From assembly GCA_014075215.1 (NCBI GenBank), contig CP046177.1:183291-247290 (forward strand): a stretch of DNA of 64,000 bases, in the 5' to 3' direction. Positions 45,245-60,919 of the stretch are shown here, piece after piece. This DNA is from Flavobacteriaceae bacterium (GTDB lineage: Bacteria; Bacteroidota; Bacteroidia; Flavobacteriales; Flavobacteriaceae). Both the position numbers and the translations under genes were made by a program. The notes below the pieces were generated by a model, which was given only the letters and a program-made list of their open reading frames with translations, was not told where the DNA came from and did not search any database. The stretch's first letter is position 1, and each line of letters starts with the position of its first letter.

Positions 45245-47530
45245 ATGAAAAAAAGTAATTTACTACCCCTAACTTTCCTTATATTACTATTTGTAGTTTC
45301 ATGCGCTACGAAGATAGACCCGGAAACATACAAAAACCCAAACGCTCCTGTTGAAGATCGGGTAAATTCACTCCTGTCTGTAATGACATTAGAAGAAAAA
45401 GTGGGGCAAATGAACCAATACAATGGTTTTTGGGATTTAACAGGCCCGGCTCCCGGTAGTGGTGATGCAGCTAAAAAATATGAGCACCTGAAAAAAGGCC
45501 GGGTAGGATCAATGCTAAATGTAAGAGGGGTTCAAAATGTAAGAAAAGTACAAAAGATCGCGGTCGAAGAATCCGGGTTAGGCATTCCTTTGATCATAGG
45601 CTTTGATGTAATTCACGGGTATAAAACACAATCACCCATACCCTTGGCAGAATCTGCCAGTTGGGATTTGGAAGCTATTAAGAGATCTGCCAGGATGGCT
45701 GCTGTGGAGGCCTCTGCAGCAGGAATTAACTGGACATTTGCACCTATGATCGATATTTCCAGAGATGCCCGATGGGGGAGAGTCATGGAAGGAGCAGGGG
45801 AAGACACCTATTTGGGAAGTAAAATAGCTGCGGCCAGAGTACGAGGATTTCAGGGCAGTGACCTGAGTCGGCATAATACTATTGCAGCTTGTGCAAAACA
45901 TTTTGCAGCATACGGCTTTGCAGCATCAGGAAAAGATTATAATACTGCAGATATAGGAACTTCCACGCTGTACAACACTGTTTTCCCTCCGTTTCAGGCG
46001 GCTGTAAAGGCAGACGTAAAAACAGTTATGAACTCTTTTAATGAGATAAATGGAATTCCGGCTACCGGTGATTCGTTCCTGCAAAGAGATATTCTGAAAG
46101 GCAAATGGGGATTTGAAGGATTTGTTATTTCAGACTGGGGATCCTTGGCGGAAATGATAGCACATGGATATGCGGAAGACAAAGAACACGCTGCGGAACT
46201 GGCTGCTAAAGCAGGATCTGATATGGATATGGAATCTTATGCTTATGTAAATCATTTGGCAGGCCTTGTAAAAGAAGGAAAAGTAAAAGAACCTCTAATA
46301 GATGATGCAGTAAAAAGGATTTTGAAGGTTAAATTTGAATTAGGGCTTTTTGAAGACCCTTATAAGTACTGTGATGAAGCCAGGGAAAAGGAAGTTATCG
46401 GTAGTAAGCAAATACATGATGCTGCTTTGGATATGGCAAAAAAATCGATTGTTTTGCTTAAAAATGAAGGAAATATATTACCACTTAAAAAGAACGGACA
46501 GAAAATTGCACTTATAGGTGCGCTAGCTTCAGATAAGAACAGCCCTTTAGGAAATTGGCGATTGGCTGCAAAAGATGATTCTGCCGTTTCTGTCTTGGAA
46601 GGAATGCAATCCTATAAAGGAAATACTTTACTATATGCAGAAGGCGCTAAAGTATCTGTCGGTACTACCAATTTTTTTACTGAAGTAACCATTAATACTA
46701 CAGATACATCCGGATTTAAAAAGGCTATTTCTGTCGCTAAAAAAGCGGACGTAGTAGTGATGGTTTTAGGAGAAGTAGGTTTCCAGAGCGGAGAAGGAAG
46801 AAGCAGAGCCAATTTAGGATTACCAGGTGTTCAGCAAAAATTATTGGAAGTGGTTTATAAGGCAAATAAAAACATCGTGTTAGTATTAAATAACGGAAGA
46901 CCTTTGGCAATTAATTGGGCAGATGAAAATATTCCTGCTATTCTGGAAGCCTGGCAATTAGGTTCGCAAAGCGGTAATGCTATAGCTCAGGTACTATATG
47001 GCGACTATAACCCCAGTGGTAAATTGCCCATGAGTTTTCCAAGAGATGTAGGCCAGATGCCTCTTTATTATAATTATAAAAATACCGGAAGACCGGGACC
47101 TAAAAAAGAAGTTTTCTGGACACATTATCAAGATATGGAGAACACTCCTCTGTATCCTTTTGGATATGGCTTGAGTTATACTTCTTTTGAATATTCGAAT
47201 ATCAGTGTACAAAATAATTACACCTCTGATAAGACTGTTAAAATAACAGTTGATATAAAAAATACCGGTAAAACGGATGGTAAAGAGGTAGCTCAATTAT
47301 ATATTCGGGATCTTTTTGCAAGTGTTACAAGGCCGGTAAGAGAATTAAAAGGATTTGAGTTAATCCCTTTAAAAACAGGTGAAACAAAAAAAATCTCTTT
47401 TACCTTAACAGATGAAGAGCTTGGTTTTTATGATAATGAAGGTGTGTTTTTAGTAGAACCGGGAACATTTAAAGTATTTGTCGGAGGCAGCTCCTATGCA
47501 AGTTTAACATCTGAATTTGAATTAGAATGA
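45245..47530 (+). CDS. bglX: GH3 beta-glucosidase
   Basis: 761-aa ORF with a lipoprotein signal. Motifs are GQMNQ, GFDVIHG, SRDARWGR and GFVISDWG (nucleophile Asp), followed by a C-terminal Fn3-like domain. Confidence 0.85.
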   Translation: MKKSNLLPLTFLILLFVVSCATKIDPETYKNPNAPVEDRVNSLLSVMTLEEKVGQMNQYNGFWDLTGPAPGSGDAAKKYEHLKKGRVGSMLNVRGVQNVRKVQKIAVEESGLGIPLIIGFDVIHGYKTQSPIPLAESASWDLEAIKRSARMAAVEASAAGINWTFAPMIDISRDARWGRVMEGAGEDTYLGSKIAAARVRGFQGSDLSRHNTIAACAKHFAAYGFAASGKDYNTADIGTSTLYNTVFPPFQAAVKADVKTVMNSFNEINGIPATGDSFLQRDILKGKWGFEGFVISDWGSLAEMIAHGYAEDKEHAAELAAKAGSDMDMESYAYVNHLAGLVKEGKVKEPLIDDAVKRILKVKFELGLFEDPYKYCDEAREKEVIGSKQIHDAALDMAKKSIVLLKNEGNILPLKKNGQKIALIGALASDKNSPLGNWRLAAKDDSAVSVLEGMQSYKGNTLLYAEGAKVSVGTTNFFTEVTINTTDTSGFKKAISVAKKADVVVMVLGEVGFQSGEGRSRANLGLPGVQQKLLEVVYKANKNIVLVLNNGRPLAINWADENIPAILEAWQLGSQSGNAIAQVLYGDYNPSGKLPMSFPRDVGQMPLYYNYKNTGRPGPKKEVFWTHYQDMENTPLYPFGYGLSYTSFEYSNISVQNNYTSDKTVKITVDIKNTGKTDGKEVAQLYIRDLFASVTRPVRELKGFELIPLKTGETKKISFTLTDEELGFYDNEGVFLVEPGTFKVFVGGSSYASLTSEFELE

Positions 47531-48288
47531 AAAAATTAACTTCATTTATTACTATACTATTACCTTTCATTATTTCATGTAGTGAAAAAGAAGTAATTTT
47601 TGAAGATCATTTTTCTTCTCAAACTTTAGATGAATCTTCTTGGAACTACGATATAGGAGACGGCTGTCCAAATCTTTGTGGTTGGGGAAACAACGAACGT
47701 CAGTTATATACCAAAGAGAATGTATCAGTAAAAAATGGAAATTTGGTGATTACTGCAACTAAAAAAGATACAGCGTATTATTCAGGAAAGATTCACACAA
47801 AACAAAAAGTAGCATTTCAATATGGTATCGTAGAAGTAAGAGCAAAACTTCCCTTGGGAAGCGGTTTATGGCCGGCAATTTGGATGCTTGGAAACGATAT
47901 TGATGAGAACGGGTGGCCAAATTGCGGAGAAATTGATATTATGGAATACGTAGGTAAAGAGCCACATACCTTATATACTTCCTTACATACTCCGGATAGC
48001 TTTGGAAATACGATTAACTCCAAAAAGACAATAAAAGAAAATTTAGAAGAAGGATTTCACATATATAAAACAAATTGGACAAAAGATGAAATCTCATTTT
48101 ACTTGGATGACGAGCTAGTATATACCTTTTCTCCTGAAATAAAGAATATCAAAAATTGGCCTTTTAACAAACCTTTCTATATAGTTCTTAATTTAGCTGT
48201 TGGAGGGAATTTTGGAGGCCCGGAGGTAGATGATTCTATTTTTCCTCAAAAATTTATAATTGATTATGTAAAAGTGTATAAAAATTAA
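47527..48288 (+). CDS. GH16 endo-1,3-beta-glucanase (laminarinase-type)
   Basis: 253-aa ORF with a lipobox (LLPFIISC). It has the catalytic ExDxxE motif in GEIDIMEY and WPAIWMLG. Confidence 0.85.
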   Translation: MKKLTSFITILLPFIISCSEKEVIFEDHFSSQTLDESSWNYDIGDGCPNLCGWGNNERQLYTKENVSVKNGNLVITATKKDTAYYSGKIHTKQKVAFQYGIVEVRAKLPLGSGLWPAIWMLGNDIDENGWPNCGEIDIMEYVGKEPHTLYTSLHTPDSFGNTINSKKTIKENLEEGFHIYKTNWTKDEISFYLDDELVYTFSPEIKNIKNWPFNKPFYIVLNLAVGGNFGGPEVDDSIFPQKFIIDYVKVYKN

Positions 48289-48313
48289 TTCTAAAAACCA
48301 TTAAATTTAAATT

Positions 48314-49126
48314 ATGAAGAAAATTACTTATTTATTAATGTTATTAACGGTTGTAGGTTACGCACAGACAACACTTATTGATTTTGAGACAGCGACTACG
48401 TGGACCGATTTCGACGGAGGCGTTATGACAACCGAGACAAATCCTTACAATAATTCGGACAATAATTCGGCGAATGTGGGGAAGATGGTAAAAAATGCCG
48501 GTCAACCATGGGGAGGAAGTTGGACAGATTTAGGTTCACCTATAGATTTTTCAAGTAATAATGCAGTATCCGTAAAGGTGTATTCACCAAGAGTAGGAGC
48601 TAAATTATTATTTAAAGTAGAGAATGAAACAGACGGAGGAGTATTTTTCCAGCAAGAAGCTACTACTACTATGGCAAATGCCTGGGAAACATTGACATAT
48701 GATTTTTCGTCAGTTAATACTGCCAATAGCTATCAGAAAGTAGTGCTTATTTTTGATAATGGAACTGTCGGAGATGGAAGTGCCAATTTTACATTCTATG
48801 TTGATGATATTACCCTATACCTAGATAGTAGTGCACTTAGTCAGATAGATTTGCCAGTAAATTTTGAAGGAAGCACTACAAATTATACGGTAACTGATTT
48901 TGGAGGTAATGCATCTATGTTAGTAACGGATCCGGCTAATAGTTCAAATAATGTGATACAATCTGTTAAAACAACCGGAGCTGAGATTTGGGCAGGTACC
49001 ACAATAGGTACGCCTTCAGGTTTTGCTACGGCAATTCCTTTTACAGCTACAAGTACTAAAATGTCCGTAAAAGTGCGATCACCGTTAGCCTTTAGATTAG
49101 CAAATAGAAATAATTACTTAAAATAA
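48314..49126 (+). pseudogene. Secreted CBM-like two-domain protein, C-terminally truncated
   Basis: The domains are related to those of 42190..44223 (VSVKVYSPRVGAKLLFKVEN). The second domain breaks after MSVKVRSP at about 49084 and runs into unrelated sequence (LAFRLANRNNYLK*). Confidence 0.6.
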
Positions 49127-49211
49127 AAACATAATAGTTATGATGAAATTTCTTTTTTTGCTTCTTTTTTTCTTTGTTAATAACTCTTATTTTGTTGATA
49201 ACCAAAAACAC

Positions 49212-49283
49212 AAAAGAACGGAGTGAACTTTAGCGGCCAGCTAGCTTTTTAGAGCCATCCCCCGTATTAGTCTCCGTTCTTTT
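49212..49283 (+). ncRNA. Candidate IS110 5' non-coding (bridge-RNA-like) stem-loop
   Basis: A perfect 12-bp stem, AAAAGAACGGAG (49212-49223) with CTCCGTTCTTTT (49272-49283), encloses 48 nt. It lies about 95 nt upstream of the recombinase ATG. Confidence 0.4.
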
Positions 49284-49376
49284 TAAAAGTTACTTAGAAC
49301 CATATAGAATTTCAGTTTCTGCCCTTATTAAAGGTCTTAGTTTAAGTAACTATTATTAATATCTAATTACAAAATT

Positions 49377-50372
49377 ATGAAAACAAATGAAATTATCGGA
49401 ATCGATGTCAGTAAATTATTAATTGATGTTTGTATCTATTCTAAACAAATTGTTCAACAGTTTGAGAACAGTAAATCTGGATTTAAATTAATGCTAAAGT
49501 GGAGTTTTAAAAATTCGTCTTTCTCTAAAGAAGAAACCATGTTTGTATTTGAACATACAGGAATGTACTCTCATTTATTATCTGTGTCTTTAACTGAACA
49601 AAAATTATCTTTTTTCATAGCTTCTGGTTTAGAAATTAAAAGATCTATTGGTATTGCTCGTGGAAAGGATGACCAAATTGATGCCAAACGCATTGCTCTA
49701 TATGGGTATCGATTAAAAGAAGAACTTAAACCCAGTAAGCTACCTAAAAGAAGTATATTACAACTAAAAAGTCTCTTATCTTTAAGGACAAAACTTAACA
49801 AACAAAGAGCTGGTTTTAAAGTTACTTTGAAAGAACAAAAAAGAATTTATAAAGCAAAAGAGTATAAAATAATCTTTGACGTTCAACAAAAAATGATTGC
49901 AGAACTAACCAAACAAATACACAAGATTAATACTCAAATGCAAGCTATTATTGACCAAAATATAATGTTAAAAGAAACCTATAAACTTGTTACTAGTGTT
50001 AAAGGTATAGGAATGCAAACTGCTATAATGATGATTGTGTTTACTGACAATTTTTCAAAATTTGAAAACTGGAGAAAGTTTGCCTCTTATTGTGGTGTTG
50101 CTCCTTTTCCTTACCAATCTGGAACTAGTATTAAAGGACGTACAAAAGTCTCTCATTTGGCTAATAAAAAATTGAAAGCAATTATTAATATGTGCGCTAT
50201 TTCTGCTATACAACATAACCCAGAAATGAAATTATACTATCATAAAAGAATAAAACAAGGCAAAAGTAAAATGAGTACCGTTAACATTATTAGAAACAAA
50301 TTAATAGCAAGAGTGTTTGCCGTTGTCAAACGACAAACACCCTATGTAGATACTTTTAAATTTGCTGCATAA
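49377..50372 (+). CDS. IS110-family transposase (DEDD recombinase)
   Basis: 331-aa ORF with the N-terminal IGIDVSK motif. The C-terminal VKGIGMQTAIMMIVFT...FASYCGVAPFPYQSGTSIKGRTKVSHLANKKLK is the IS116/IS110/IS902 domain. Confidence 0.85.
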   Translation: MKTNEIIGIDVSKLLIDVCIYSKQIVQQFENSKSGFKLMLKWSFKNSSFSKEETMFVFEHTGMYSHLLSVSLTEQKLSFFIASGLEIKRSIGIARGKDDQIDAKRIALYGYRLKEELKPSKLPKRSILQLKSLLSLRTKLNKQRAGFKVTLKEQKRIYKAKEYKIIFDVQQKMIAELTKQIHKINTQMQAIIDQNIMLKETYKLVTSVKGIGMQTAIMMIVFTDNFSKFENWRKFASYCGVAPFPYQSGTSIKGRTKVSHLANKKLKAIINMCAISAIQHNPEMKLYYHKRIKQGKSKMSTVNIIRNKLIARVFAVVKRQTPYVDTFKFAA

Positions 50373-50493
50373 ATTAGTAAAAATAATATCTCAACTTTTA
50401 CTTGTTTTTATCATAGAATACCTTTAAGATCTCCGTATTGTACTGTTGTATGTTTTTCTAAATATTTCATACTACAAAAGTAAGTTTATTCTT

Positions 50494-51108
50494 TTAGTCT
50501 ACAAATTTCTGTTTTACTACTTCAAAATTCCACTTATTAAAACCTTGATAATATGCCTCAACCCAAAAGTAAGTAGGATTATTATAATCCTGTTGACAAT
50601 CAAACTCGCAATAGGTTTTTACCAAGAACCCAAAATTGCCTAAATACCGAAGTAAATATGGCTGATAGTTACCCTGACGAGTTACTTTACAATTTGGCTT
50701 TTGGTTAATCTCGTATTGAATAAATTTTTTAGTAGCCCTATATGCTGTTTGTCTCCAATAATTTGAGTATTCAAATTCTTCTAATGTAGGTTCTTTGTGC
50801 TTCTTATTATATGCCTTTGGGTCTTTCCATAATTCCAGTAAATCTAATTGAGGTTCTGTATTATTTTGAAAAGCTGAATTATCTGTAACATCTAATTCTT
50901 CACCTTCTTTCATTTGCTGTAATTGTTTAATTTTTTTTATCCAATCTTCATTGCTTTGATTTTGTGTTTTAGGTGTTTCAGTTATTGTGTTTTGTTCCTT
51001 TTCTAGTATTTGGTTGTGTTGTTGTTTAGGTTTATCATTACAACTTATAAGAAGTAATACTAGAGTAGTTGCTATTGATGTTATTTTAAGTGTTTTCACT
51101 AAGTACAT
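50494..51108 (-). CDS. Lipoprotein whose start region was rebuilt by an IS4 insertion
   Basis: 204-aa ORF: MYLV|KTLKITSIATTLVLLLISC. The first codons come from the IS4 terminal repeat. The original start is reconstructible as MKTLKIT.... Confidence 0.6.
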   Translation of the reverse strand: MYLVKTLKITSIATTLVLLLISCNDKPKQQHNQILEKEQNTITETPKTQNQSNEDWIKKIKQLQQMKEGEELDVTDNSAFQNNTEPQLDLLELWKDPKAYNKKHKEPTLEEFEYSNYWRQTAYRATKKFIQYEINQKPNCKVTRQGNYQPYLLRYLGNFGFLVKTYCEFDCQQDYNNPTYFWVEAYYQGFNKWNFEVVKQKFVD

Positions 51109-52193
51109 GACAAAAATTTAGTCAAGTTCATATTGTTTTGATTTACAGGGTTTAATAGCACAGAAGCGATATAATCTAATCCATATTTGAATATGCTTTT
51201 AGCCATTCTTCCATGCTTTTTTATTTTGATAGGCTTAATCTGATGTAAATATATACCAACTTTGTAACACCATACGAAAGCCATCATTACAAACAGTACT
51301 AATTTTTCAATACGCTTAATATCTTGCAGGTGTGTGTTTTCAATATCAAAGCCACTGGCTTTCATTGCTTTAAAACACATCTCTATCTGCCATCGTTCTT
51401 TGTATTGTTCAAAGGCCTTATCAGGAGCGTTGAACGATACAATGATTAAGAAATCAGGCTTTCCATTTTTTGGGTACAACTTGCATCCGGAAAGGAAACA
51501 AAGCTGACCATTAACACGTACAATTTTAGGATAATACACAAACTCATTGATCTTATGTGGATTAAACAAGTGAAATACTTTGATGGTTTTGTTCTTATCA
51601 GGAAGCTCTACCTTAAAGTTGTTTCGAATGCGGATATAATATTTGATTCCATTTGTATTCAAGAAATCCAACCAATGATTACCTACAAACTCTCTATCGG
51701 CTACAATGGATTTAATAACATCTTTGCCAAAAAGTCTTATGAAACGATTCACAAGATCAATACGCTCCTGACTGTTAGAGTTCCCTGGCTTATCTAACAT
51801 AGTAAATAACAATGGGAAGGCAACACCTTTATAGACAACTCCCAACTTAAAAATGTTGATGTTGGTCTGACCAAACTTCCAATTGGTCCTATCAATACTC
51901 AAGATCAATCCCTCTTGCTTAGGAAGGAGACTAAATATAAGACGAGCGATCAAATCTCCATCCAACGAATAATCAGCAATAAATCTTTGAATACGTCTGA
52001 GTGATGACTTCGAATCTACTGAGGTCTCAAAAGCGTTGGCTACCTTTTCAAAGGTAACTGTCTGTACCTTACAGAGGGCGATAATGAAATGTGATATGAG
52101 TTTGATTCTTGCCAAATTGATCTTACCTTGGAAATGAGAACTTAAAACTGAATTTAATTCACTACTTTTAGTGGAAGCATTGGTTTTTTTCAT
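51099..52193 (-). CDS. IS4-family DDE transposase
   Basis: 364-aa ORF with SIDRTNWKFG, VADREFVG and YKERWQIEMCFKAMK (YREK-type). The stop codon lies in the terminal repeat. Confidence 0.85.
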   Translation of the reverse strand: MKKTNASTKSSELNSVLSSHFQGKINLARIKLISHFIIALCKVQTVTFEKVANAFETSVDSKSSLRRIQRFIADYSLDGDLIARLIFSLLPKQEGLILSIDRTNWKFGQTNINIFKLGVVYKGVAFPLLFTMLDKPGNSNSQERIDLVNRFIRLFGKDVIKSIVADREFVGNHWLDFLNTNGIKYYIRIRNNFKVELPDKNKTIKVFHLFNPHKINEFVYYPKIVRVNGQLCFLSGCKLYPKNGKPDFLIIVSFNAPDKAFEQYKERWQIEMCFKAMKASGFDIENTHLQDIKRIEKLVLFVMMAFVWCYKVGIYLHQIKPIKIKKHGRMAKSIFKYGLDYIASVLLNPVNQNNMNLTKFLSCT

Positions 52194-52306
52194 TAGAAAA
52201 ATGAGTGATGTTATTCTTCTAATATACTGAAAATCAATGCTTTATTTTAATTATTTAACATTTAATTTACTGATAATCAATTAATTATATTTTTTGTCAT
52301 GTACTA
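51099..52306 (-). mobile_element. IS4-family element (about 1208 bp)
   Basis: Inverted ends CTAAGTACATGACAAAAA... and ...TTTTTGTCATGTACTA. The 10-11 bp duplication AAGTGTTTTCA lies at 51088-51098 and 52307-52317. Confidence 0.8.
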
Positions 52307-52317
52307 AAGTGTTTTCA

Positions 52318-52770
52318 TTATTCTAATTCTTGTATTCCGTAAAAAACTAATGTTTGCCCATTTTTAAACTCATAACCAATACTACCAACAGTATCAACCC
52401 ATATCTGAAAACAGATAGAATTATCGATGTCAAATTCCATTCCTTTTAACCCTAATAAACTTTCCGTTATTTTGGACTTCTTTATTTTAAATTCAAAGGT
52501 ATTCCAACTCCTATTTTTAGTTTTGGATTTATAAGAAATCAGGTTTTTGTTGAAGTCGAATGTATGATAACTTACTTCATCATTTGTCTGTAATATATCA
52601 ACCCCTTTTTCGAGGTCATTACTATTACTAACAAATTTAAAAATAGGTTTCTCATTACTTCCCGTCTTGTTTTTTGACGATGAGGTCTTATTGGTTTGAG
52701 TGCATCCAATTAGTGTAGTAAGGATAATAATACCAAAGACTATAATCTTTTTTGTATTAGTGTGGTTCAT
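52318..52770 (-). CDS. Lipoprotein (150 aa), originally stop/start-overlapped (TAATG) with the downstream lipoprotein gene
   Basis: MNHTNTKKIIVFGIIILTTLIGC has a lipobox. I recognise no family. Confidence 0.6.
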   Translation of the reverse strand: MNHTNTKKIIVFGIIILTTLIGCTQTNKTSSSKNKTGSNEKPIFKFVSNSNDLEKGVDILQTNDEVSYHTFDFNKNLISYKSKTKNRSWNTFEFKIKKSKITESLLGLKGMEFDIDNSICFQIWVDTVGSIGYEFKNGQTLVFYGIQELE

Positions 52771-52789
52771 TTGCTTTTCTCATTAATTT

Positions 52790-52990
52790 CAACCCAGTAC
52801 CTAAGTTGAGTGATTAACAAAAAATAAGGCATGGTACTAAAGTCCACTCCTTGGACGAGGTACTGGTATACCTATCAAGTAAAGCGAACTAAGCCCATGC
52901 CCATAAGGAACACGGGCATTAGTTCATCCTTTCTACTTGATTGATTGAAAATTATCAGTTTTCGTCCAAGTTATTAGATGACTAATGCCT
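52790..52990. ncRNA. Candidate structured non-coding element (strand unresolved)
   Basis: There is no ORF here. Several 8-13 bp complementary pairs are present: 52794-52801/52859-52866, 52849-52857/52962-52970, 52874-52881/52934-52941 and 52915-52928/52977-52989. There are also local hairpins at 52842-52856 and 52897-52919, some mutually exclusive with the long-range pairs. Confidence 0.4.
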
Positions 52991-53076
52991 ATCTGCGTAT
53001 TTTATGTAAAGAACGTTTATATCGTTATTCTATATCTTTTGTTTTCTGATTGTATTCCAAATATAATGGATTTCGA

Positions 53077-53622
53077 TTAATCTAAATCTGTATTAAGTAA
53101 TTTTAATAGTTCCTTTTTTTCATCATCAGTAAAATTATTTCTTATGTATGTGCTAAATGAACTTGGAGTTTTTTCAAGTTTTATTCGTTGCCGTTTAAAC
53201 CCTCCTTCAATCATTGCTTTGTACACAGATAATTCTTTAGACATGACTTTTTCAAATAAATCTAATCGATGTTTTTCTAACACTTCTAGACTTCTTTGTT
53301 TATCCGTCTTTCTTACCCTTTTTATGTCTATATCTAATTCTAATTGTACACTTTTTTGTCTTCCAAGTTCTAATTCTACTTCTGTAAACCCTGAACAAAT
53401 TTCTTCTATATCTTTAAAATCCATTTGCAAGCCCCAAGGTCTTACTGTTTCTACAAAGTCAGGAAAATAATTAAACTCTTTAGGTTCTAATTCATTTGGA
53501 GCAGGGTCTCTATTTTTCCAGTCTTCTGATTTAATAATATTTAATATCAATCTTGGTATATGGGTTTCCCTAAATTTGTGTTCCTTTAATTCTTCTTGAA
53601 CTTGTTCTATTAAATTTTCCAT
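53077..53622 (-). CDS. hypothetical protein (181 aa, acidic/helical), coupled to the HNH-helicase gene
   Basis: Its ATG at 53622 lies 1 nt after the helicase TAA (CAA TAA A ATG). The C-terminal half (LEVLEKHRLDLFEKVMSKELSVYKAMIEGGFKRQR) recalls HTH tails of ParB/phage DNA-binding proteins (weak recall). Confidence 0.6.
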   Translation of the reverse strand: MENLIEQVQEELKEHKFRETHIPRLILNIIKSEDWKNRDPAPNELEPKEFNYFPDFVETVRPWGLQMDFKDIEEICSGFTEVELELGRQKSVQLELDIDIKRVRKTDKQRSLEVLEKHRLDLFEKVMSKELSVYKAMIEGGFKRQRIKLEKTPSSFSTYIRNNFTDDEKKELLKLLNTDLD

Positions 53623-53623
53623 T

Positions 53624-55507
53624 TTATTGGCTTTTTAATTTCTCGTATAACTCTTTAGATAGTTCTAATTTTTTCTTGTATTCATCTAAAGTAAAAATAA
53701 GGCTATTTTTTTTACCTACAGATTTATTTAATTTTGAATGTATGTCTCTATACTCTAAACCAAAATCAAAATGAATACGCCCAACCATTTTATGGACTAA
53801 TTTTTTATATCTGTCTTTTTCATCCGTTATTGTTTCTATTTTATGAGGTCGTCTTTCCTCTAATGAAGGTTGCTGACCTGCAATATTTAAAATATCTTTC
53901 CACATGCTTAATACCTTATCTTTTGTAACATCGTATTTAGTAGCTAATATTGTAGCTTCTACATCTTCAGTTTGAGAGAAAAGTGCACCTCCATATACAT
54001 TTCCACTATTTTCACTTGTAGAGCTTAAAACTATATCTTCTATGCTAATTTGAGTTGGCTTTCCACCAATACCCCCTATATGCTCTTCTTCAACGGAATC
54101 TATTTCATATCGAATATGTCTTAATTCTTCTTCAATAAATGTAGCATTGTCAATCAATGGTTTATATTCTGGAATGTACATATAACATACATCTGAATTA
54201 TTTTTAAAATGTACTGGATTTCTAACACCTCGCCCCATAACTTGAACAAACCTAACTCTTGTAGTAACATTTGAAGCATAAACAATAGCCCTTATTCTAG
54301 AAATATCTACTCCCTCAGAAACCATATTAATTGAAATAATCCACGTTTTATAACTTTCTTTAAAACGCTCTATTTTTCTATTGGAATCTTTATCATCACT
54401 TGTAACCAATTCAGCAAAATCAACCCCGTATTTATTATATATTCTCTCGTATAATGCTTTAGCATCTGCTATGGAATTACAAACAATCAAACCTGCATAG
54501 TTTTCATTGCGGTTGGTATTAATCTCATTTAACTGTTGATTAGCCTTTTCAAATGTTTGATATACATAACAATCTCCCTCTGGGCGTACTTTAATTGCAT
54601 TATTATAAATATTTTTTATTTCAGATGCAGGGTCTTCATTTTTTAATCTTTCATAACCATTTACAGTTTCAACTGTTGACGAATTTCGTTGAAATATTAC
54701 AGGACAGCAGACTTTATCTTTAACACTTTCAGCATATCCATAAGAATAATCATATTGTAATTCGTATTTTCTATCGCCAATTTTTTTATATGTAACAAAA
54801 GGTATTTCTGCATTATCATTTCTGTCTGGAGTACCACTCAATAGTAACACAAAACCTGCTTCGTCTCCAATTTCTCTAATTGCATTGCCCCAAGATTTAT
54901 CGTCACCTGCATGATGAACCTCATCAACTATTAGAACAACTCTTTGATTTACATATTTTTTTAGAATTTCTAGGTTTAATGGGTTAAGACTTTGAAAGGT
55001 AATACTAATGCCATTACAATCTCTTGGCCACGCGTACTTAAATTGATAACCATGGTCTACTCTGATGTTAAAAAATTTCTGAAAAGTAACACTCCAATTC
55101 TTTTTAATATTTTCTGTAGGACTAATAACAATTACAGAGTCAAACTCCCCAGATTTTAATAGATAATTAAAAGTATAGCTTGAAAACATAGTCTTTCCCG
55201 AGCCAACTCCAGCAACTGCTAAAAAAGAATTTCCGCCTCCTTTTCGTACCTTAATTAATTTTGCAAAACAATCTTGTTGCCATTTTCTTAATTCAATTTC
55301 TTTTTGATTTCTCATTTTATTTGATTTTAATAAATTACACTTTGGGCATAAGGCTTGTCCATTAGAAATGTGTGTAATACCGTATTTAGAAAATGGAGTA
55401 ATGTGATCAGCATGCCAATTTGTTGGTAAAGAAGTACCACAATTTTGACATAAACCCTCAGAAAGAACAAAGAGAGCTTTTTTTTGCTTTGAATTAAAAT
55501 ATCTCAT
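53624..55507 (-). CDS. HNH endonuclease::SF2 (DEAD/DEAH, ResIII-like) helicase fusion protein
   Basis: 627-aa ORF. The HNH is CQNCG...HADHITPFSKYG...NGQALCPKCNLLKSN. Helicase motifs are I AGVGSGKT, II LIVDEVHH, III LLSGTP, V SINMVSEGVDISRI and VI QVMGRGVR. A C-terminal region of about 170 aa is of unknown function. Confidence 0.8.
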   Translation of the reverse strand: MRYFNSKQKKALFVLSEGLCQNCGTSLPTNWHADHITPFSKYGITHISNGQALCPKCNLLKSNKMRNQKEIELRKWQQDCFAKLIKVRKGGGNSFLAVAGVGSGKTMFSSYTFNYLLKSGEFDSVIVISPTENIKKNWSVTFQKFFNIRVDHGYQFKYAWPRDCNGISITFQSLNPLNLEILKKYVNQRVVLIVDEVHHAGDDKSWGNAIREIGDEAGFVLLLSGTPDRNDNAEIPFVTYKKIGDRKYELQYDYSYGYAESVKDKVCCPVIFQRNSSTVETVNGYERLKNEDPASEIKNIYNNAIKVRPEGDCYVYQTFEKANQQLNEINTNRNENYAGLIVCNSIADAKALYERIYNKYGVDFAELVTSDDKDSNRKIERFKESYKTWIISINMVSEGVDISRIRAIVYASNVTTRVRFVQVMGRGVRNPVHFKNNSDVCYMYIPEYKPLIDNATFIEEELRHIRYEIDSVEEEHIGGIGGKPTQISIEDIVLSSTSENSGNVYGGALFSQTEDVEATILATKYDVTKDKVLSMWKDILNIAGQQPSLEERRPHKIETITDEKDRYKKLVHKMVGRIHFDFGLEYRDIHSKLNKSVGKKNSLIFTLDEYKKKLELSKELYEKLKSQ

Positions 55508-55595
55508 ATTTACTAACCGCCTTTCACTTTTTTAGTGACCATCAGCCTTATGGGCTAAAGATAGTAAAAATTATTGAATATCAGATGATTCGTTT

Positions 55596-55787
55596 TATCG
55601 CATACCAGGGCAGAATCATACTTTGTGATACAAAGTAAGTTTTCCAACAAAATCCGCTAATTTTTGTAAATTTTCAAAAATCTCAAAGATTTTTATTAGT
55701 GAAATAGCATGTTTTAGACATTTAGAAGAGAAAAATTTGTGTATTTGTAGTAAAAATAAAAGTATGATTTTGCCCTGTATCGCATAC
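55596..55787. promoter_or_regulatory. Candidate replication origin / regulatory region
   Basis: A 19-bp inverted repeat (18/19) joins CAGGGCAGAATCATACTTT (55606-55624) and AAAGTATGATTTTGCCCTG (55759-55777). Each arm is abutted by the direct 10-mer TATCGCATAC (55596-55605 and 55778-55787). The repeats enclose about 134 bp of AT-rich DNA and an adjacent hairpin, CTTTGT GAT ACAAAG. Confidence 0.4.
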
Positions 55788-55868
55788 GTAAAAATTATCG
55801 TATTTAAAAAGGCACTTAGTGTATATAGTAAAACACAACTCTCAAAAATTACTGGGGGACAGATAAAT

Positions 55869-56822
55869 CTAAAAAATTAAATCTTTTACAGACCTAATTT
55901 TAATATCTAATTCCCTTACTAGATTCTTTTCTAGTGTATTTTTACTGACTTCTTTTAATAATTCCTTTACGACAGATTTCATTTTACTACGTTTACTTCT
56001 AGGGTTTATAACATCAAAATCTAAATCGGATATAATATTTATTACCTTATCAAATCCCAGTTTATCTATACCATGATATGAAAGGTACTGATACAGTCCA
56101 CTATGTCTATACAATAAATGAACTGGGTCTTTACCTATTGATAATTTATTAACCTTATGATAATCTTTTAACCAAAGTTCCTTCAACTTATTTTGAACAG
56201 TATCGTCAAATAAAGATTTTAAATATACTTGCTCTAAATTAAATCGCTGCTTTAAATTCTTTTTAAGCCTTATTTCGTAGCGTAGAATGTTTTTATTATG
56301 ATATTCGATAGGTATTGAGTAAAACACCTCTTTATTCCCATTTTTTAACTCTTTTATTTTATCATAAAAAATTAATGATTTTGAAGCCCATTTTGTAAAA
56401 AATGTGACAGAATCTTTATAACGATTAGTTTCAAGTCGAGGAAAAGAAATTAAAGAACTAATATATTCATGAACTGAATAATCTACCTCAATATTATATC
56501 CATAATCAACTCTAGTCAATATTGCCTTTTTCATGTTCACATTAATATTGTCTGAAAGCATATTAACAGCTTCTTTAATTGTCTTTCTGTTTAAATGAAG
56601 AAGATTATTACCAAAGTGAAATTTAGACAAAGAACCATTAAAATAAAGTTTATAAGGTTTGTAGTTTTCATTAAGTATAAAAGTAATCTTCATATTTGAA
56701 AGATTTAGTGAAGCTGTATAACCACTATCAGATGTAGATATCTTGGCTTCGCTAATTAACTCCTTAAAATTTGAGTTCTCTTTTGGTTTTATGTCTAAAT
56801 ACCCCTTTATTGTATCAATCAT
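55869..56822 (-). CDS. Putative rolling-circle replication initiator (phage/plasmid gene II/X-like)
   Basis: 317-aa ORF. The N-terminal MIDTIKGYL and the central FYDKIKEL...NILRYEIRLKK pattern match my recall of the Phage_CRI (gene II/X) family. This is not verified by a search. Confidence 0.5.
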   Translation of the reverse strand: MIDTIKGYLDIKPKENSNFKELISEAKISTSDSGYTASLNLSNMKITFILNENYKPYKLYFNGSLSKFHFGNNLLHLNRKTIKEAVNMLSDNINVNMKKAILTRVDYGYNIEVDYSVHEYISSLISFPRLETNRYKDSVTFFTKWASKSLIFYDKIKELKNGNKEVFYSIPIEYHNKNILRYEIRLKKNLKQRFNLEQVYLKSLFDDTVQNKLKELWLKDYHKVNKLSIGKDPVHLLYRHSGLYQYLSYHGIDKLGFDKVINIISDLDFDVINPRSKRSKMKSVVKELLKEVSKNTLEKNLVRELDIKIRSVKDLIF

Positions 56823-56885
56823 AAGTGTTTCCTTTTTATGGAAATTAGTATAGCTTATTATACCGAGTTATATATTCAATAATTT

Positions 56886-57194
56886 TCATAACGATTTGTT
56901 TTTAAGGTTCAACAAATTGTTAGCCACCATTGTTTCAATATCGTCTGTAGATTGAATACGGTTTTTCAAAATGAAATTCTCTAAATCTCTACGCTTAATA
57001 AAAATGAGTTTTCCTGAAGGTTTGGAATAAGGAATTTGATTAGAAGTAATCAATTTTTGCATATAAGAGTAACTTACTCCTATTACAAAAGATGCTTCTT
57101 TAATTGTATAGATGCGTTTACGATAGAGATGACTTTTTTTGATTTCTCTTTTGAGGCTTCTTATCTCACGAACTAGTTGTGCAATTCTTGCCAT
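56886..57194 (-). CDS. Excisionase-type helix-turn-helix DNA-binding protein
   Basis: 102-aa ORF. YTIKEASFVIGVSYSYMQKLITSNQIPYSKPSGKLIFIKRRDLENF is MerR/Xis-like. It lies directly downstream of the integrase gene. Confidence 0.65.
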   Translation of the reverse strand: MARIAQLVREIRSLKREIKKSHLYRKRIYTIKEASFVIGVSYSYMQKLITSNQIPYSKPSGKLIFIKRRDLENFILKNRIQSTDDIETMVANNLLNLKNKSL

Positions 57195-57259
57195 AATGAA
57201 TAATTTAAAAGCTATTATGGCACAAATCTCTTACATAATAGAAGTTTAATTGATAAGTA

Positions 57260-59047
57260 TTAAGGTAGTGGGATAGTAGTACTTATTTCATCTATTATGT
57301 CATTTGTAATGTATTCAAATGCTTTGTGCTTATCTTCACTTAAAGCTTTACTCAGTTGGTTATTTTTAAATGGTTCTCCATTTTTATTGATAAAATGATG
57401 AATTACTAATTGATGTCTAAATCGTTTAGTTTCATTATTTAGATAGTTGTTTTCAATCAATAAATCGATTAAATTCGTTATCTGAAACTCAGTTCCGAGC
57501 CATTGAATTTTTTTATCCCATTGGTTCTCAAAATGAAATTTAAAATCATCATTTTTTTCATCAATTAGTTTGTTTTTAATTAACACTTTGTATAGGAAAT
57601 TGATAAATTCTTTTTTGTTTAAATCAGGGTTAAGTAAAAAGGATTTTTTTCTATTTATTCTTAATGGATTAGTGGTATCATTATTATTTTCAATTTTTGA
57701 AAGTTTTGTATCAATAATTCTTTTCAACTTAATTAACCTCAACTGAAAATCATAATACTTTTCATCTTTATGTTCGATTTTAAGCAGGAGTTCAATTATA
57801 TCATTTTCATATTGTTCGAAATACTCATCATAAAACCATTCACCAGAAATTCTATCTCTATGACCACCACCATAGAAATCATCTAACACCAAATAACTAA
57901 AATGAGTTTCAAAATTGTGTAGTATTCTATCCTCAAAATATTCAACCTTTTTCTTTACTTCTTGTAGTTCTATAATATAAAATTCTAAATTTACCATACT
58001 ATTAACGGCTTTTTGTTTTTCCTCGTCAATAACTTTTGCATACACTAAAGTACTTTTTATATCTTTATGCCCCATAAGTTTTGAGATAGTAAAAATATTA
58101 ACTCCAGCAGTAACTAGTAATGTTGCAAAAGTGTGCCTTGCACAATGAAAATGTACTTTTTTATCAATCCCAGTCAGTTTAATAAGTTTCTTAACTGTCC
58201 TATTCATTGAACTAATATGGTCTGAAAGATTGAATACAAATTCTTCATTGTGAGTTTGTTTGTTTAAAATATTCCGAGCGTTATTATTTAAAGGTATATA
58301 AACCGTATTCTTAGTTTTATTTTGTATTAATTGTATTCTGTTATCCTTAATGTTAGACCATTTCAAATTTTTAATATCCGATGCCCTAAGCCCACTATAA
58401 CAACTAAATAAAAAAGCATTCTTTGAATCGTTGTCCCAAAAATCGGTAGAAATTATTTTTTGTATTTCATCCTTTGTTAAAAATACAATTTCGGTTTCTT
58501 TCTTTTTAGGTCTTTCAATAAATCTAATAGGATTTTCAACAATGATTTTTTCTTTAATAGCTTGATTAAGTGTTGCATTGATTTTATTGGTATAAGTAAC
58601 AATAGAGTTATTTGCCAACTCTTTACTTTTAAGGTATTCAATGAAATTTTCAATCCAACTAACCGAAATGTTTTCAAAAGTCAATTTTTTGCCTTGAAAT
58701 TTAATAAGGTGTTTTAAGGTGTTATCCCAAGCTGTTTTTGTCTTTTCACTTTTCTTGTTTCCTAACTTTTCAAAATAGAGTATGAAATTTGCCTTTTGTA
58801 ATTGCCTTGATACTAAACCATTTTTTGCATTACCCAATTCAATTTCCAATTTTGCTCTTATATTTTCAACTAACCGTTCTTTTTGTTTTCTAACCTCTTT
58901 GGTGTCGGTTGTATTAAAGGTTACTTCTTTTATGGTTTCCCTTACTCGTTTTCCGTTTAAGGTATAATCTAATTGTTTTCTATAAGGTCTATTCTTACGA
59001 GAGTTATTTTTATTCCCAATATACTTTGTTCTTAAATTTACTGACAT
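57260..59047 (-). CDS. Tyrosine site-specific integrase with a 243-aa C-terminal extension
   Basis: 595-aa ORF. The catalytic set is readable: R221 (GLRASD), H301-x-x-R304 (HCARH), H327 (MGHKD) and Y336 (LVYAKV). The core ends at about residue 352. Residues 353-595 (57260..57991) form an additional domain of unknown family. Confidence 0.8.
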   Translation of the reverse strand: MSVNLRTKYIGNKNNSRKNRPYRKQLDYTLNGKRVRETIKEVTFNTTDTKEVRKQKERLVENIRAKLEIELGNAKNGLVSRQLQKANFILYFEKLGNKKSEKTKTAWDNTLKHLIKFQGKKLTFENISVSWIENFIEYLKSKELANNSIVTYTNKINATLNQAIKEKIIVENPIRFIERPKKKETEIVFLTKDEIQKIISTDFWDNDSKNAFLFSCYSGLRASDIKNLKWSNIKDNRIQLIQNKTKNTVYIPLNNNARNILNKQTHNEEFVFNLSDHISSMNRTVKKLIKLTGIDKKVHFHCARHTFATLLVTAGVNIFTISKLMGHKDIKSTLVYAKVIDEEKQKAVNSMVNLEFYIIELQEVKKKVEYFEDRILHNFETHFSYLVLDDFYGGGHRDRISGEWFYDEYFEQYENDIIELLLKIEHKDEKYYDFQLRLIKLKRIIDTKLSKIENNNDTTNPLRINRKKSFLLNPDLNKKEFINFLYKVLIKNKLIDEKNDDFKFHFENQWDKKIQWLGTEFQITNLIDLLIENNYLNNETKRFRHQLVIHHFINKNGEPFKNNQLSKALSEDKHKAFEYITNDIIDEISTTIPLP

Positions 59048-59141
59048 ATCATTAGGTTTAGTTTTCTAAATTTAAAAGATAAATTCTACTCAAGTGACAG
59101 ATACGTGACACTTTTTTGTAACAATCTGCTATAATATGCAA

Positions 59142-59168
59142 CAAAAATAGGTTGCCGAATGACAACCT
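59142..59168 (-). terminator. Rho-independent terminator downstream of lysS
   Basis: On the minus strand it reads AGGTTG TCATTCGG CAACCT followed by ATTTTTG (plus-strand stems 59149-59154 and 59163-59168). Confidence 0.5.
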
Positions 59169-59230
59169 ATAGTAAGTATGAAGTGAGTACTTATTTAATA
59201 CTCATCTTTAAAGTTTATAATATTAAAACA

Positions 59231-60919
59231 CTAAATAACCTCTACAATTAAGCCATTTTCTGTTTTGGAAACTTTAGCTAAGTTATTTTTAGTCAGTTCT
59301 TTAATTGCTTTATCCCATTTCTTATTAGATAATTCAGCTTTAACTTTAATGTCACTTAAAGCACTGCCAGAATGTTCTTTTAAAATGCCTAATATCACTT
59401 TTGCTTCATCACTAATTGCCACTTGTTTTTTCTCTGGTCTCATTTGCGGAAAAAAAAGCACTTCCTGAATAGACTGATTATTCGTTAAAAACATCACCAA
59501 CCGATCCATACCAATTCCCATTCCGGAAGTTGGCGGCATTCCATATTCCAAAGCCCGTAGAAAATCATCGTCAATAAATTTGGTAGCCTCATTATCGCCT
59601 TTAGCAGCCAGTTGCAGTTGAGCTTCAAAACGTTCTCTCTGATCTATAGGATCATTTAACTCGGAATAAGCATTGGCAATTTCTTTTCCGCATACCATCA
59701 GCTCAAAACGCTCTGTTAACTCGGGATGATCTCTATGCTCTTTACATAAAGGGCTCATTTCTTTTGGGTAATCTATAATAAAAGTGGGTTGGATATAATT
59801 TTTTTCACATTTTTCACCAAAAATCTCATCAATTAATTTCCCTTTGCCCATCGTATCATCTACCTCGATGTTCATAGATTTTGTAGCTTCGCGGATTTCA
59901 TCTTCCGTTTTTCCGTTAATATCAAAACCGGTGAAATCCTTAATGGCATCTGCCATCGTAACCCTAGCGTAAGGCGCTTTAAAATCTATTTCATGTGCTC
60001 CATAAGTAGCTTTTGAAGTTCCATTTACTGCAATTGCACAATGCTCTAATAATTGCTCGGCAAAATTCATCATCCAGTTATAATCCTTATACGCCACGTA
60101 AATTTCCATTGCCGTAAACTCAGGATTATGTGTCTTATCCATTCCTTCATTTCTAAAGTTTTTAGAAAATTCATACACGCCATCAAATCCACCGACAATT
60201 AACCTTTTCAAATAGAGCTCATTGGCAATTCTCATATACAGCGGGATTCCTAAAGCGTTGTGATGTGTTACAAAAGGTTTTGCTGCTGCACCACCTGCAA
60301 TAGGTTGTAAAACAGGAGTTTCTACCTCAAAATAACCGGCATTATTGAAAAAAGTACGCATTGCATTAAACAGCTTGGTTCTTTTAATAAAAACCTCTTT
60401 TACATGTGGGTTCACTACCAAATCCGCATACCGTTGCCTGTAACGAAGTTCGGTATCTGTAAAAGCATCAAATACAACACCGTCTTTTTCTTTTGGAAAA
60501 GGCAATGGTTTTAATGCTTTACTTAATAAGGTAAAATTTTTAACCAGTACTGTTTTCTCTCCGACTTTAGTGGTAAACAATTCTCCTTCAATACCCACAA
60601 AATCCCCTAGGTCTAATAGTTTTTTAAAAACTTCATTGTATTTGGATTTATCTTCCCCCGGACAAATTTCATCACGATTAAAATAAACCTGAATCCTGCC
60701 TTTACTGTCCTGCAACTGTGCAAAAGAAGCTTTTCCCTGAATATTAATAGCCATTAACCTTCCTGCAATTACAACGGAGTTTCCTTCTTTAAAAGTTGTT
60801 TTTATGGCTTCGGAATTTGTAGTTACCGGGTAAATGCCTGCCGGATACGGATTAATTCCTAAAGCTCTAAGCCTGGAAAGTTTTTTTCTTCTGACAATTT
60901 CTTGCTCCGATAACTGCAT
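59231..60919 (-). CDS. lysS: lysine--tRNA ligase (class II)
   Basis: 562-aa ORF with an OB anticodon-binding domain. It has class II motifs (FRNEGMDKTHNPEFTAME, GIGMDRLVMFLT) and a C-terminal extension of about 60 aa. Confidence 0.95.
   Translation of the reverse strand: MQLSEQEIVRRKKLSRLRALGINPYPAGIYPVTTNSEAIKTTFKEGNSVVIAGRLMAINIQGKASFAQLQDSKGRIQVYFNRDEICPGEDKSKYNEVFKKLLDLGDFVGIEGELFTTKVGEKTVLVKNFTLLSKALKPLPFPKEKDGVVFDAFTDTELRYRQRYADLVVNPHVKEVFIKRTKLFNAMRTFFNNAGYFEVETPVLQPIAGGAAAKPFVTHHNALGIPLYMRIANELYLKRLIVGGFDGVYEFSKNFRNEGMDKTHNPEFTAMEIYVAYKDYNWMMNFAEQLLEHCAIAVNGTSKATYGAHEIDFKAPYARVTMADAIKDFTGFDINGKTEDEIREATKSMNIEVDDTMGKGKLIDEIFGEKCEKNYIQPTFIIDYPKEMSPLCKEHRDHPELTERFELMVCGKEIANAYSELNDPIDQRERFEAQLQLAAKGDNEATKFIDDDFLRALEYGMPPTSGMGIGMDRLVMFLTNNQSIQEVLFFPQMRPEKKQVAISDEAKVILGILKEHSGSALSDIKVKAELSNKKWDKAIKELTKNNLAKVSKTENGLIVEVI

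Follow-up and report, generated by a model that had tools for sequence, protein, structure and literature searches.

The stretch analysed here, called the window below, is a 64-kb segment of the genome of a Flavobacteriaceae bacterium (contig CP046177.1). Two open reading frames (ORFs) of its minus strand are separated by an intergenic gap of 306 nt (52771-53076), which harbors a cassette at about 52819-53065 read from the same strand. The upstream neighbor is a co-oriented 181-aa ORF (53077-53622, minus strand) with no Pfam or PADLOC family. The downstream cargo gene (52318-52770, minus strand) encodes a predicted lipoprotein of 150 aa without a Pfam family, whose N-terminus, MNHTNTKKIIVFGIIILTTLIGC, has a signal peptide and a cysteine visible in the sequence. 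A preliminary description had singled out the ORF-free DNA between the 181-aa ORF and the start of the lipoprotein gene as densely and in part mutually exclusively paired, being either a structured RNA or a recombination site. The placement is correct, and the minus-strand RNA of the cassette has two mutually exclusive folds, each with covariation among relatives, one of them a terminator.

In the RNA sense, the cassette begins with a candidate Bacteroidota -7 promoter box of the form TAnnTTTG (TATATTTG, 53058-53065), which would place the RNA start near 53050; the predicted minus-strand RNA of about 200-225 nt would extend from there to around 52819, with a conserved core at 52819-52989. The promoter box is followed, in most copies of the family, by a 5' hairpin and then by segment a, the 5' strand of helix P1 (GGCAUUAGUCAUC, 52977-52989), the 5' strand of P2 (CUUGGACGA, 52962-52970), the conserved box 1 (GAAAACUGAUAAUUUUC, 52947-52963) containing the 5' strand of P3 (ACUGAUA, 52953-52959), the 5' strand of P4 (AUCAAGUA, 52934-52941) and segment e (GAUGAACUAAUGCC, 52915-52928), which can pair either with a (P1) or with segment e' (extended P5). 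Beyond e, the loop of the P5 hairpin (GCCCGUG...CAUGGGC, 52893-52917) leads to e' (GGCAUGGGCUUAGUUC, 52886-52901), which holds the 5' strand of helix PL (GGCAUGG). The 3' half consists of the 3' strand of P4 (UACUUGAU, 52874-52881), box 2 with the 3' strand of P3 (GGUAUACCAGUACC, 52859-52872), the 3' strand of P2 (UCGUCCAAG, 52850-52858), segment a' with the 3' strand of PL (CCAUGCC; GGACUUUAGUACCAUGCC, 52828-52845) and, immediately 3' of PL, a U-tract (UUAUUUUUU, 52819-52827), the predicted 3' end of a short RNA. Box 2 has an alternative structure, a hairpin of its own (GGUAU-ACCA-GUACC) that caps PL. Past the U-tract and 24-31 nt ahead of the ATG at 52770 lies box 3 (GGUACUGG, 52794-52801), complementary to CCAGUACC in box 2 and kept as GGRACUG in the window's subfamily only, mostly with one mismatch. 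All these parts are on the minus strand.

The pairings listed in the preliminary description are all present and can now be assigned to these parts. Its second helix is P2 (TCGTCCAAG, 52962-52970, with CTTGGACGA, 52850-52858, an arm that had been placed one base off at 52849-52857), its third is P4 (ATCAAGTA, 52874-52881, complementary to TACTTGAT, 52934-52941) and its fourth is P1 (GGCATTAGTTCATC, 52915-52928, complementary to GATGACTAATGCC, 52977-52989). Both of its local hairpins exist as well (52842-52856 and 52897-52919), the latter, ATGCCC...GGGCAT, being P5. Helices 2, 3 and 4 and the P5 hairpin are supported by covariation in relatives, as set out below. Its first helix, made of CCAGTACC (52794-52801) and the complementary GGTACTGG (52859-52866), joins box 2 to the downstream box 3; one of its arms is invariant, so covariation carries no information on this pairing. 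The invariant helix P3, the terminator helix PL and the U-tract at 52819-52827 are additions to the original list.

Homologous intergenic regions, proposed as a check in the preliminary description, were found by BLAST among 300 genomes of the same family, at 70-78% identity. In ten aligned relatives there are invariant blocks, and the helices between them are altered on both sides. The two-block pattern ACTGRTAAT N{55,85} GGTATACCAGTACC was used for a wider family search and matches at least 120 loci across Bacteroidota, including Flavobacterium, Chryseobacterium, Elizabethkingia, Mucilaginibacter, Pedobacter, Chitinophaga, Niabella, Bacteroides and Draconibacterium. When the phylum was sampled evenly, 19 of 400 genomes contained the strict pattern (0 for the reversed-pattern control), at up to three copies per genome and with a concentration in the window's own family (12 of 28). 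An nhmmer profile built from 41 main-family copies, leaving out the window and its close kin, has a single match in the 64-kb window (52811-52964, minus strand, E 7e-13), and a profile of seven copies of the sigmaE/dCas12f type matches it at 52817-52964 (minus strand, E 5.1e-10). The cassette is present as a single copy in its own genome. A second candidate there (L160, G000:C1:3774562-3774575), with a box 2 carrying one mismatch (GGTATCCCAGTACC), was rejected, the other motif features being absent and the site looking coding. Copies are also found on contigs of metagenome-assembled genomes labelled Lentisphaerae, Sulfurimonas and Verrucomicrobiae (L062, L066, L084), which could be due to mis-binning or to transfer outside Bacteroidota.

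Regarding folding energy, the dense pairing of the preliminary description exceeds that of shuffled sequences on both strands. The 306-nt intergenic stretch reaches -82.9 kcal/mol on the minus strand, where dinucleotide shuffles give -57.0 +/- 4.9 (z -5.3, matched by 0 of 100), and the plus strand gives a z of -3.0. Pairs of the U.G and G.U type are frequent across both folds; these would be A.C mismatches on the opposite strand, hence the folded strand is the window minus strand. One fold, B, is a nested rod of P2, P3, P4, extended P5 and P5. The other, A, combines P1 (a with e) and PL (e' with a'), PL being a long irregular hairpin followed at once by the U-tract. The mutual exclusivity suggested in the preliminary description is seen within the window, where the minimum free energy structure (MFE) has P1 together with the terminator fold and the centroid is the rod, and among relatives, where single-sequence MFEs (n=113) contain P3 in 105 cases, PL in 7 and both in none.

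For the covariation counts, 124 sequences were aligned with MAFFT without regard to structure, and RNAalifold structures were used. Fold B has 94.2% of its cells paired and 418 both-side changes (shuffled mean 126), and fold A 90.0% and 232 (shuffled mean 66), values that 0 of 500 shuffles reach in either case. The covariation score of fold B, 0.334, drops to at most 0.068 when the partner is slid by 1-3 columns, and that of fold A from 0.258 to at most 0.093. Among individual helices, all 10 pairs of P2 vary on both sides (e.g., AU 46, UA 38, CG 26, GC 11), P5 has 95-97% of its cells paired with both-side changes, PL is 95% paired and segment a also shows both-side changes; a G-C to A-U change in a' is common to the window and its closest relatives. 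P3 (ACUGAUA with UACCAGU) is invariant, its sole unpaired cell being that of the window, which carries an A at a position that is G in 123 of 124 relatives. Box 2 is invariant in 124 of 124 sequences, partly as a result of selection since 116 of them were retrieved using box 2.

A partner-swap test, which is free of alignment, compared the duplex energy of each strand with its own partner and with the partners of other family members. The own partner is better for P2 (-11.8 vs. -3.4 kcal/mol swapped), P4 (-11.8 vs. -5.3), P1 (-15.1 vs. -10.7), extended P5 (-19.0 vs. -15.3) and PL (-21.2 vs. -18.1), and negative-control pairs have no advantage. P4 was left unaligned by MAFFT and draws its support from this test only, in which 3% of its swapped partners equal its own. 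A closing helix P0 between a and a' was dropped, own and swapped partners being equivalent (-8.3 vs. -8.65 kcal/mol).

The signals flanking the folds are those of transcription. Of 127 copies, 94 have a TAnnTTTG box 50-110 nt upstream of box 1, compared with 6 of 127 shuffled ones, and its position peaks sharply at -58 to -65; in the window it is farther upstream than in the majority of copies. Downstream of a', 115 of 125 family members carry a U-rich tract, and among the matches listed the downstream gene is co-oriented in 100 of the 111 loci where one is called. In the window, PL (GGCAUGG...CCAUGCC) directly precedes the U-tract and forms in the MFE, and the two together are a predicted intrinsic terminator.

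These signals bear on the other possibility raised in the preliminary description, namely a recombination site or folded single-stranded DNA of a rolling-circle or integron-like system, such as a single-strand origin or a nick site for a Phage_CRI-type Rep or an att site of the integrase. Such a site would suit the surrounding island, which encodes a tyrosine integrase (57260-59047), an HTH_17 excisionase-like protein (56886-57194), a Phage_CRI (G2P) Rep-like protein (55869-56822) and an HNH and SF2 helicase protein (53624-55507, best PADLOC match PbeA), all on the minus strand, and the folding is strand-specific. However, when eight neighborhoods from a family of about 128 related loci were compared with the window's Rep, a Rep-like gene was found in one, the usual neighbors in 120 listed loci being hth, susCD and sigmaE genes. 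The linkage expected of a single-strand origin or attC is thus absent in relatives, which keep the promoter box, the U-tract and the strand-specific G.U pairs instead, and family members have been observed as RNA (PMC13472631). Nor does any convincing att-like direct repeat join 48000-53100, and with it the cassette, to the integrase end of the island (59048-59230). A DNA site is therefore very improbable. The placement of the cassette at the island edge is likewise not upheld, given that no att repeats were found and a co-oriented cargo gene follows the cassette.

As for the island itself, its compact minus-strand part (window 53077-59230) adjoins a class II aminoacyl-tRNA synthetase gene (59231-60919); no boundaries of the island were found. 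A 19-nt inverted repeat between the helicase and Rep genes (55606-55624 and 55759-55777, 95% complementary, arms 134 nt apart) may serve the island as an origin or operator. On the other side, a segment at 49377-52193, with an IS110-family transposase gene (49377-50372, plus strand), a 204-aa ORF and a DDE transposase gene (DDE_Tnp_1, 51099-52193), lies between the island cargo and a polysaccharide-utilisation locus (45245-48288) that includes GH3 and GH16 genes.

As the preliminary description had also found, the element does not match a known RNA. Neither in the window nor in six relatives does a family of Rfam 15 attain its gathering score, and the window contains no tRNA or tmRNA. The weak matches to MIR2655, SNORD62 and petD were set aside as chance. 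The best weak match is Pedo-repair (RF01715; 22.1 bits, E 0.011, minus strand), a Bacteroidota motif with a multi-stem junction and then a possible terminator, located upstream of radC or mcrC operons and carrying extra stems described as possible alternative structures (Weinberg et al., 2010, PMC2864571). One BLAST relative (L031) has radC directly upstream, but the score is far under the gathering score of 150 bits and the Pedo-repair sequences compared do not contain this family's invariant boxes. The logic of the two is analogous, and homology is not claimed.

The gene contexts of the relatives point to the identity of the cassette. The commonest layout among the 120 listed loci consists of a small divergent XRE-type HTH gene, the cassette, and the genes of a TonB-dependent receptor resembling SusC and of SusD, with M16 peptidases frequently located beyond. 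A divergent hth is found in 50 of these loci, susC in 42, a downstream sigmaE-like gene in 10, an integrase nearby in 9, upstream conjugative-transposon tra genes in 8 and rteC in 7; 54 have none of hth, susC and sigma. The sigmaE-like factor is an extracytoplasmic function (ECF) sigma factor with a second region-4 domain, and in two loci (L117 and L136) the gene after it matches nuclease-deactivated Cas12f (PDB 9n9c; E 3.5e-188 and 5.7e-187). A distinct subfamily (L039, L043, L044, L085, L093, L115, L142, L157) is located downstream of conjugative-transposon genes (TraM, DUF4138/TraN-like, TraQ) and of HTH_17 genes. In other loci this subfamily immediately precedes rteC, which is known as the excision regulator of CTnDOT.

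A non-coding RNA (ncRNA) of high abundance has been reported between hth and rpoE-dcas12f, and also upstream of susCD, where it adjoins a homologue of hth (Hoffmann et al., Nature 2026, PMC13472631). In that study, rpoE and dcas12f were expressed at a low level, the targets matched by dCas12f guides overlapped the ncRNA and lay on its strand, the seed of the guide was similar to the 5' end of the ncRNA, and RNA-guided transcription started 46 bp downstream of the target-adjacent motif (TAM), 5'-G. The ncRNA was dispensable for targeting and activation; its role and promoter were left open, a negative regulator comparable to an anti-sigma factor being suggested (PMC13472631). The relatives of the window cassette occupy the same spots (between a divergent hth and rpoE-dcas12f, and between hth and susCD), on which grounds the family is identified as this hth-associated ncRNA. 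They share their invariant boxes and helices with the window copy, and the taxa agree (Flavobacteriia and relatives). The identity of the dominant guide with the e' box agrees with the published likeness of guide seeds to one end of the ncRNA. The window copy differs by its setting: it precedes a lipoprotein gene within an integrase/Rep/helicase island. Taken together, the window RNA probably belongs, as a divergent orphan, to the hth-associated ncRNA family of Bacteroidota, the cassette probably being a bistable terminator gate, a reading held with moderate confidence. To the published account, which gives no function, promoter or fold, it would add a two-fold terminator model and a promoter box, as well as a spread beyond dCas12f loci (conjugative elements, rteC, radC, and the 54 of 120 listed loci without hth, susC or sigma).

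Guide sequences provide a further link to dCas12f. Guide RNAs (gRNAs) were read downstream of dcas12f in three loci (L117, L136 and L137) as a scaffold, GAGGGTGCTTGTACACCCGTAAGG...ATATACAAC, followed by the guide, and a scan of metagenomes with this scaffold gave 62 loci, making 67 gRNAs with those three. The dominant guide among the 67, (G)GCGTGGGCTCTCTTAT, is the family consensus of e', so that e' in the window corresponds to the commonest dCas12f guide. The gRNA follows the cassette on the same strand, 2.1-2.5 kb downstream, in at least 16 loci. The window e' (GGCATGGGCT...) is similar to an L136 guide (GGCATGGGCTCTTTTTA), and the window genome has no detected dCas12f. Since e' and a' are complementary, a guide could in principle match either strand.

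The L136 locus has three tandem dCas12f gRNA genes with differing guides downstream of dcas12f (~5400-5800): one is the e' box in its GGCATGGG form, also the form of the window, one is similar to the 5' end of the cassette (CGATACT.CTTTAAG) and one to the ACATATAAAA box upstream of window-type copies. In the genome of L136, near-matches to one of these guides are at chance level, none of them inside a cassette. The L137 guide matches its genome exactly only at the two gRNA genes; outside these, its best match (GGCGTGGGACTCT, 12/13) is at ~1500 in L163, on the antisense strand over a' of another cassette.

The proposed mechanism takes the cassette as a self-contained transcription gate that combines a promoter for the primary sigma factor with a bistable leader and an intrinsic terminator. 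In fold A, pairing of a with e would free e' to pair with a' ahead of the U-tract; transcription would stop and a short stable RNA would accumulate. In fold B, e would pair with e', P4, P3 and P2 would zip into the rod, and a' would be left single-stranded with no terminator, allowing the RNA polymerase to read through into the downstream gene, here that of the 150-aa lipoprotein. The choice between the folds could depend on folding kinetics, a protein or a ligand. Termination, read-through and the direction of the switch are thus inferred from the folding model. In species with dCas12f-sigmaE, the guide would match e', and a start at TAM+46 would fall between e' and a', inside the 3' strand of P2 (~52855 in the window). 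A transcript started there would have only the 3' strand of the terminator and so could not terminate at this point. Transcripts from the housekeeping promoter would form PL and stop, which would explain the abundant short RNA and the low expression of rpoE-dcas12f (PMC13472631). Such a bypass of the terminator by an RNA-guided start follows from the geometry of the model and was not proposed in PMC13472631.

This architecture resembles that of classical attenuators and riboswitch platforms, the pairings a:e and e':a' vs. e:e' corresponding to the 1:2, 3:4 and 2:3 pairings of a four-segment leader such as trp, and in the cassette both alternatives covary. Unlike these systems, the cassette has no leader peptide and no known ligand or protein, its terminator helix encloses ~60 nt including an invariant hairpin, and its antiterminator is a ~40-bp rod whose 3' strands lie within the terminator loop. 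A riboswitch in the strict sense, with a small molecule or ion bound by the invariant P3 region and the internal loops to pick terminator or antiterminator, would make use of such a platform, of the invariant boxes of 14 and 16 nt between covarying helices and of the frequent position upstream of TonB-dependent transporter genes. However, the downstream genes are unrelated (susCD, sigmaE-dcas12f, rteC, lipoprotein and DHFR-like genes) instead of coherent in function, some copies are downstream of tra genes, nearly every invariant base is paired in one fold or the other, which explains the invariance without a ligand, and there is no ligand candidate. A riboswitch is thus considered quite unlikely.

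The short RNA might also itself be the product and act in trans, e.g., by antagonizing dCas12f-sigmaE or another factor, or serving as its decoy, or through base-pairing with other transcripts, the terminator being a mere 3' end. The abundance of the RNA as a discrete species and its suggested likeness to an anti-sigma factor (PMC13472631) would fit this possibility, as would the common sequence of guide and e' and the display of the invariant boxes in the hairpin loops of fold A. A cis switch better accommodates the covariation of both P1 and extended P5, which are mutually exclusive, and the co-orientation of the downstream gene (100 of the 111 loci with a called gene among the matches listed). 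Moreover, the ncRNA is dispensable for targeting and activation (PMC13472631), and the present genome has one copy and no dCas12f found. A role in trans is therefore held to be rather unlikely, and the cis-acting bistable gate is preferred.

Several points weigh against this preferred reading. Both structures were derived from the same alignments as were used for counting covariation. At equilibrium, fold B (RNAalifold, -57.8 kcal/mol) is favored by ~6 kcal/mol in most relatives over fold A (-51.6 kcal/mol with the 5' strand of P3 held unpaired), and efficient termination would consequently need a kinetic or factor-dependent route; even with this strand forced unpaired, PL is in the MFE of just 26 of 113 single sequences. 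Equilibrium folding also did not separate 5'-truncated from full-length transcripts, the pairing of the 7 nt before the U-tract being 0.55 in full-length RNA, 0.51 when the start follows segment a and 0.41 when it is at e'+46 (with crude 3'-end detection). Identity with the published ncRNA would rest on genomic position and the guide match, and guide-target searches in two genomes gave no clear target in a cassette. As for the window copy, it has no hth (the nearest HTH gene being that of HTH_17, 56886-57194, 3.9 kb off), no sigmaE partner and no directly downstream susCD, the 5' hairpin seen in the main family is missing, and none of the other 124 aligned copies shares its mismatch in P3 (G to A, giving A.C), which makes it unique among the 124. 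It may be decaying.

At the extreme, the window copy would be a decayed relic carried into the island, in which the terminator hairpin alone, if anything, is still relevant. The unique P3 mismatch, the missing partner genes and 5' hairpin, the more distant promoter box and the adjoining IS110 and DDE transposase genes would all fit, as would the negative search for dCas12f in the window's genome (one contig, 99% complete) with the L117 protein as query. Against this, every helix of both folds is intact save for the single mismatch, and a whole subfamily without hth retains the layout, its copies lying directly ahead of small, unrelated exported-protein genes and close to integrases. A relic is accordingly given only a slim chance. 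The A.C mismatch should weaken fold B, in agreement with the terminator fold being the MFE of the window, and within the preferred reading of a gate this copy probably acts mostly as a terminator-type gate or insulator before the lipoprotein gene.

More generally, it can be tentatively hypothesized, as a doubtful but possible extension, that the cassette is a "locked gate" throughout Bacteroidota, i.e., a housekeeping promoter running into a terminator, with e' as landing pad for dCas12f-gRNA-sigmaE, whose start 46 bp farther along, between the two strands of the terminator, would open the gate and leave it in place, and with an older, Cas-independent opening through the rod fold that sequesters e'. 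If true, this would explain the spread of the cassette into genomes and mobile elements without dCas12f, such as this island, and would provide a mechanism for the ncRNA of RNA-guided systems, the guide having evolved from or towards the e' box. RNA-guided transcription by dCas12f-sigmaE was described in 2026 with the role of the companion ncRNA left open, and a fold model is now offered, with the geometric prediction that RNA-guided starts lie inside the terminator. For the genome at hand the significance is modest, with one orphan copy probably insulating or gating a small lipoprotein gene in a mobile island. The cassette is far more widespread than dCas12f loci, being found in conjugative elements, in integrative islands and before many exported-protein genes while missing from Rfam, and may be a common, so far unannotated regulatory module of Bacteroidota.

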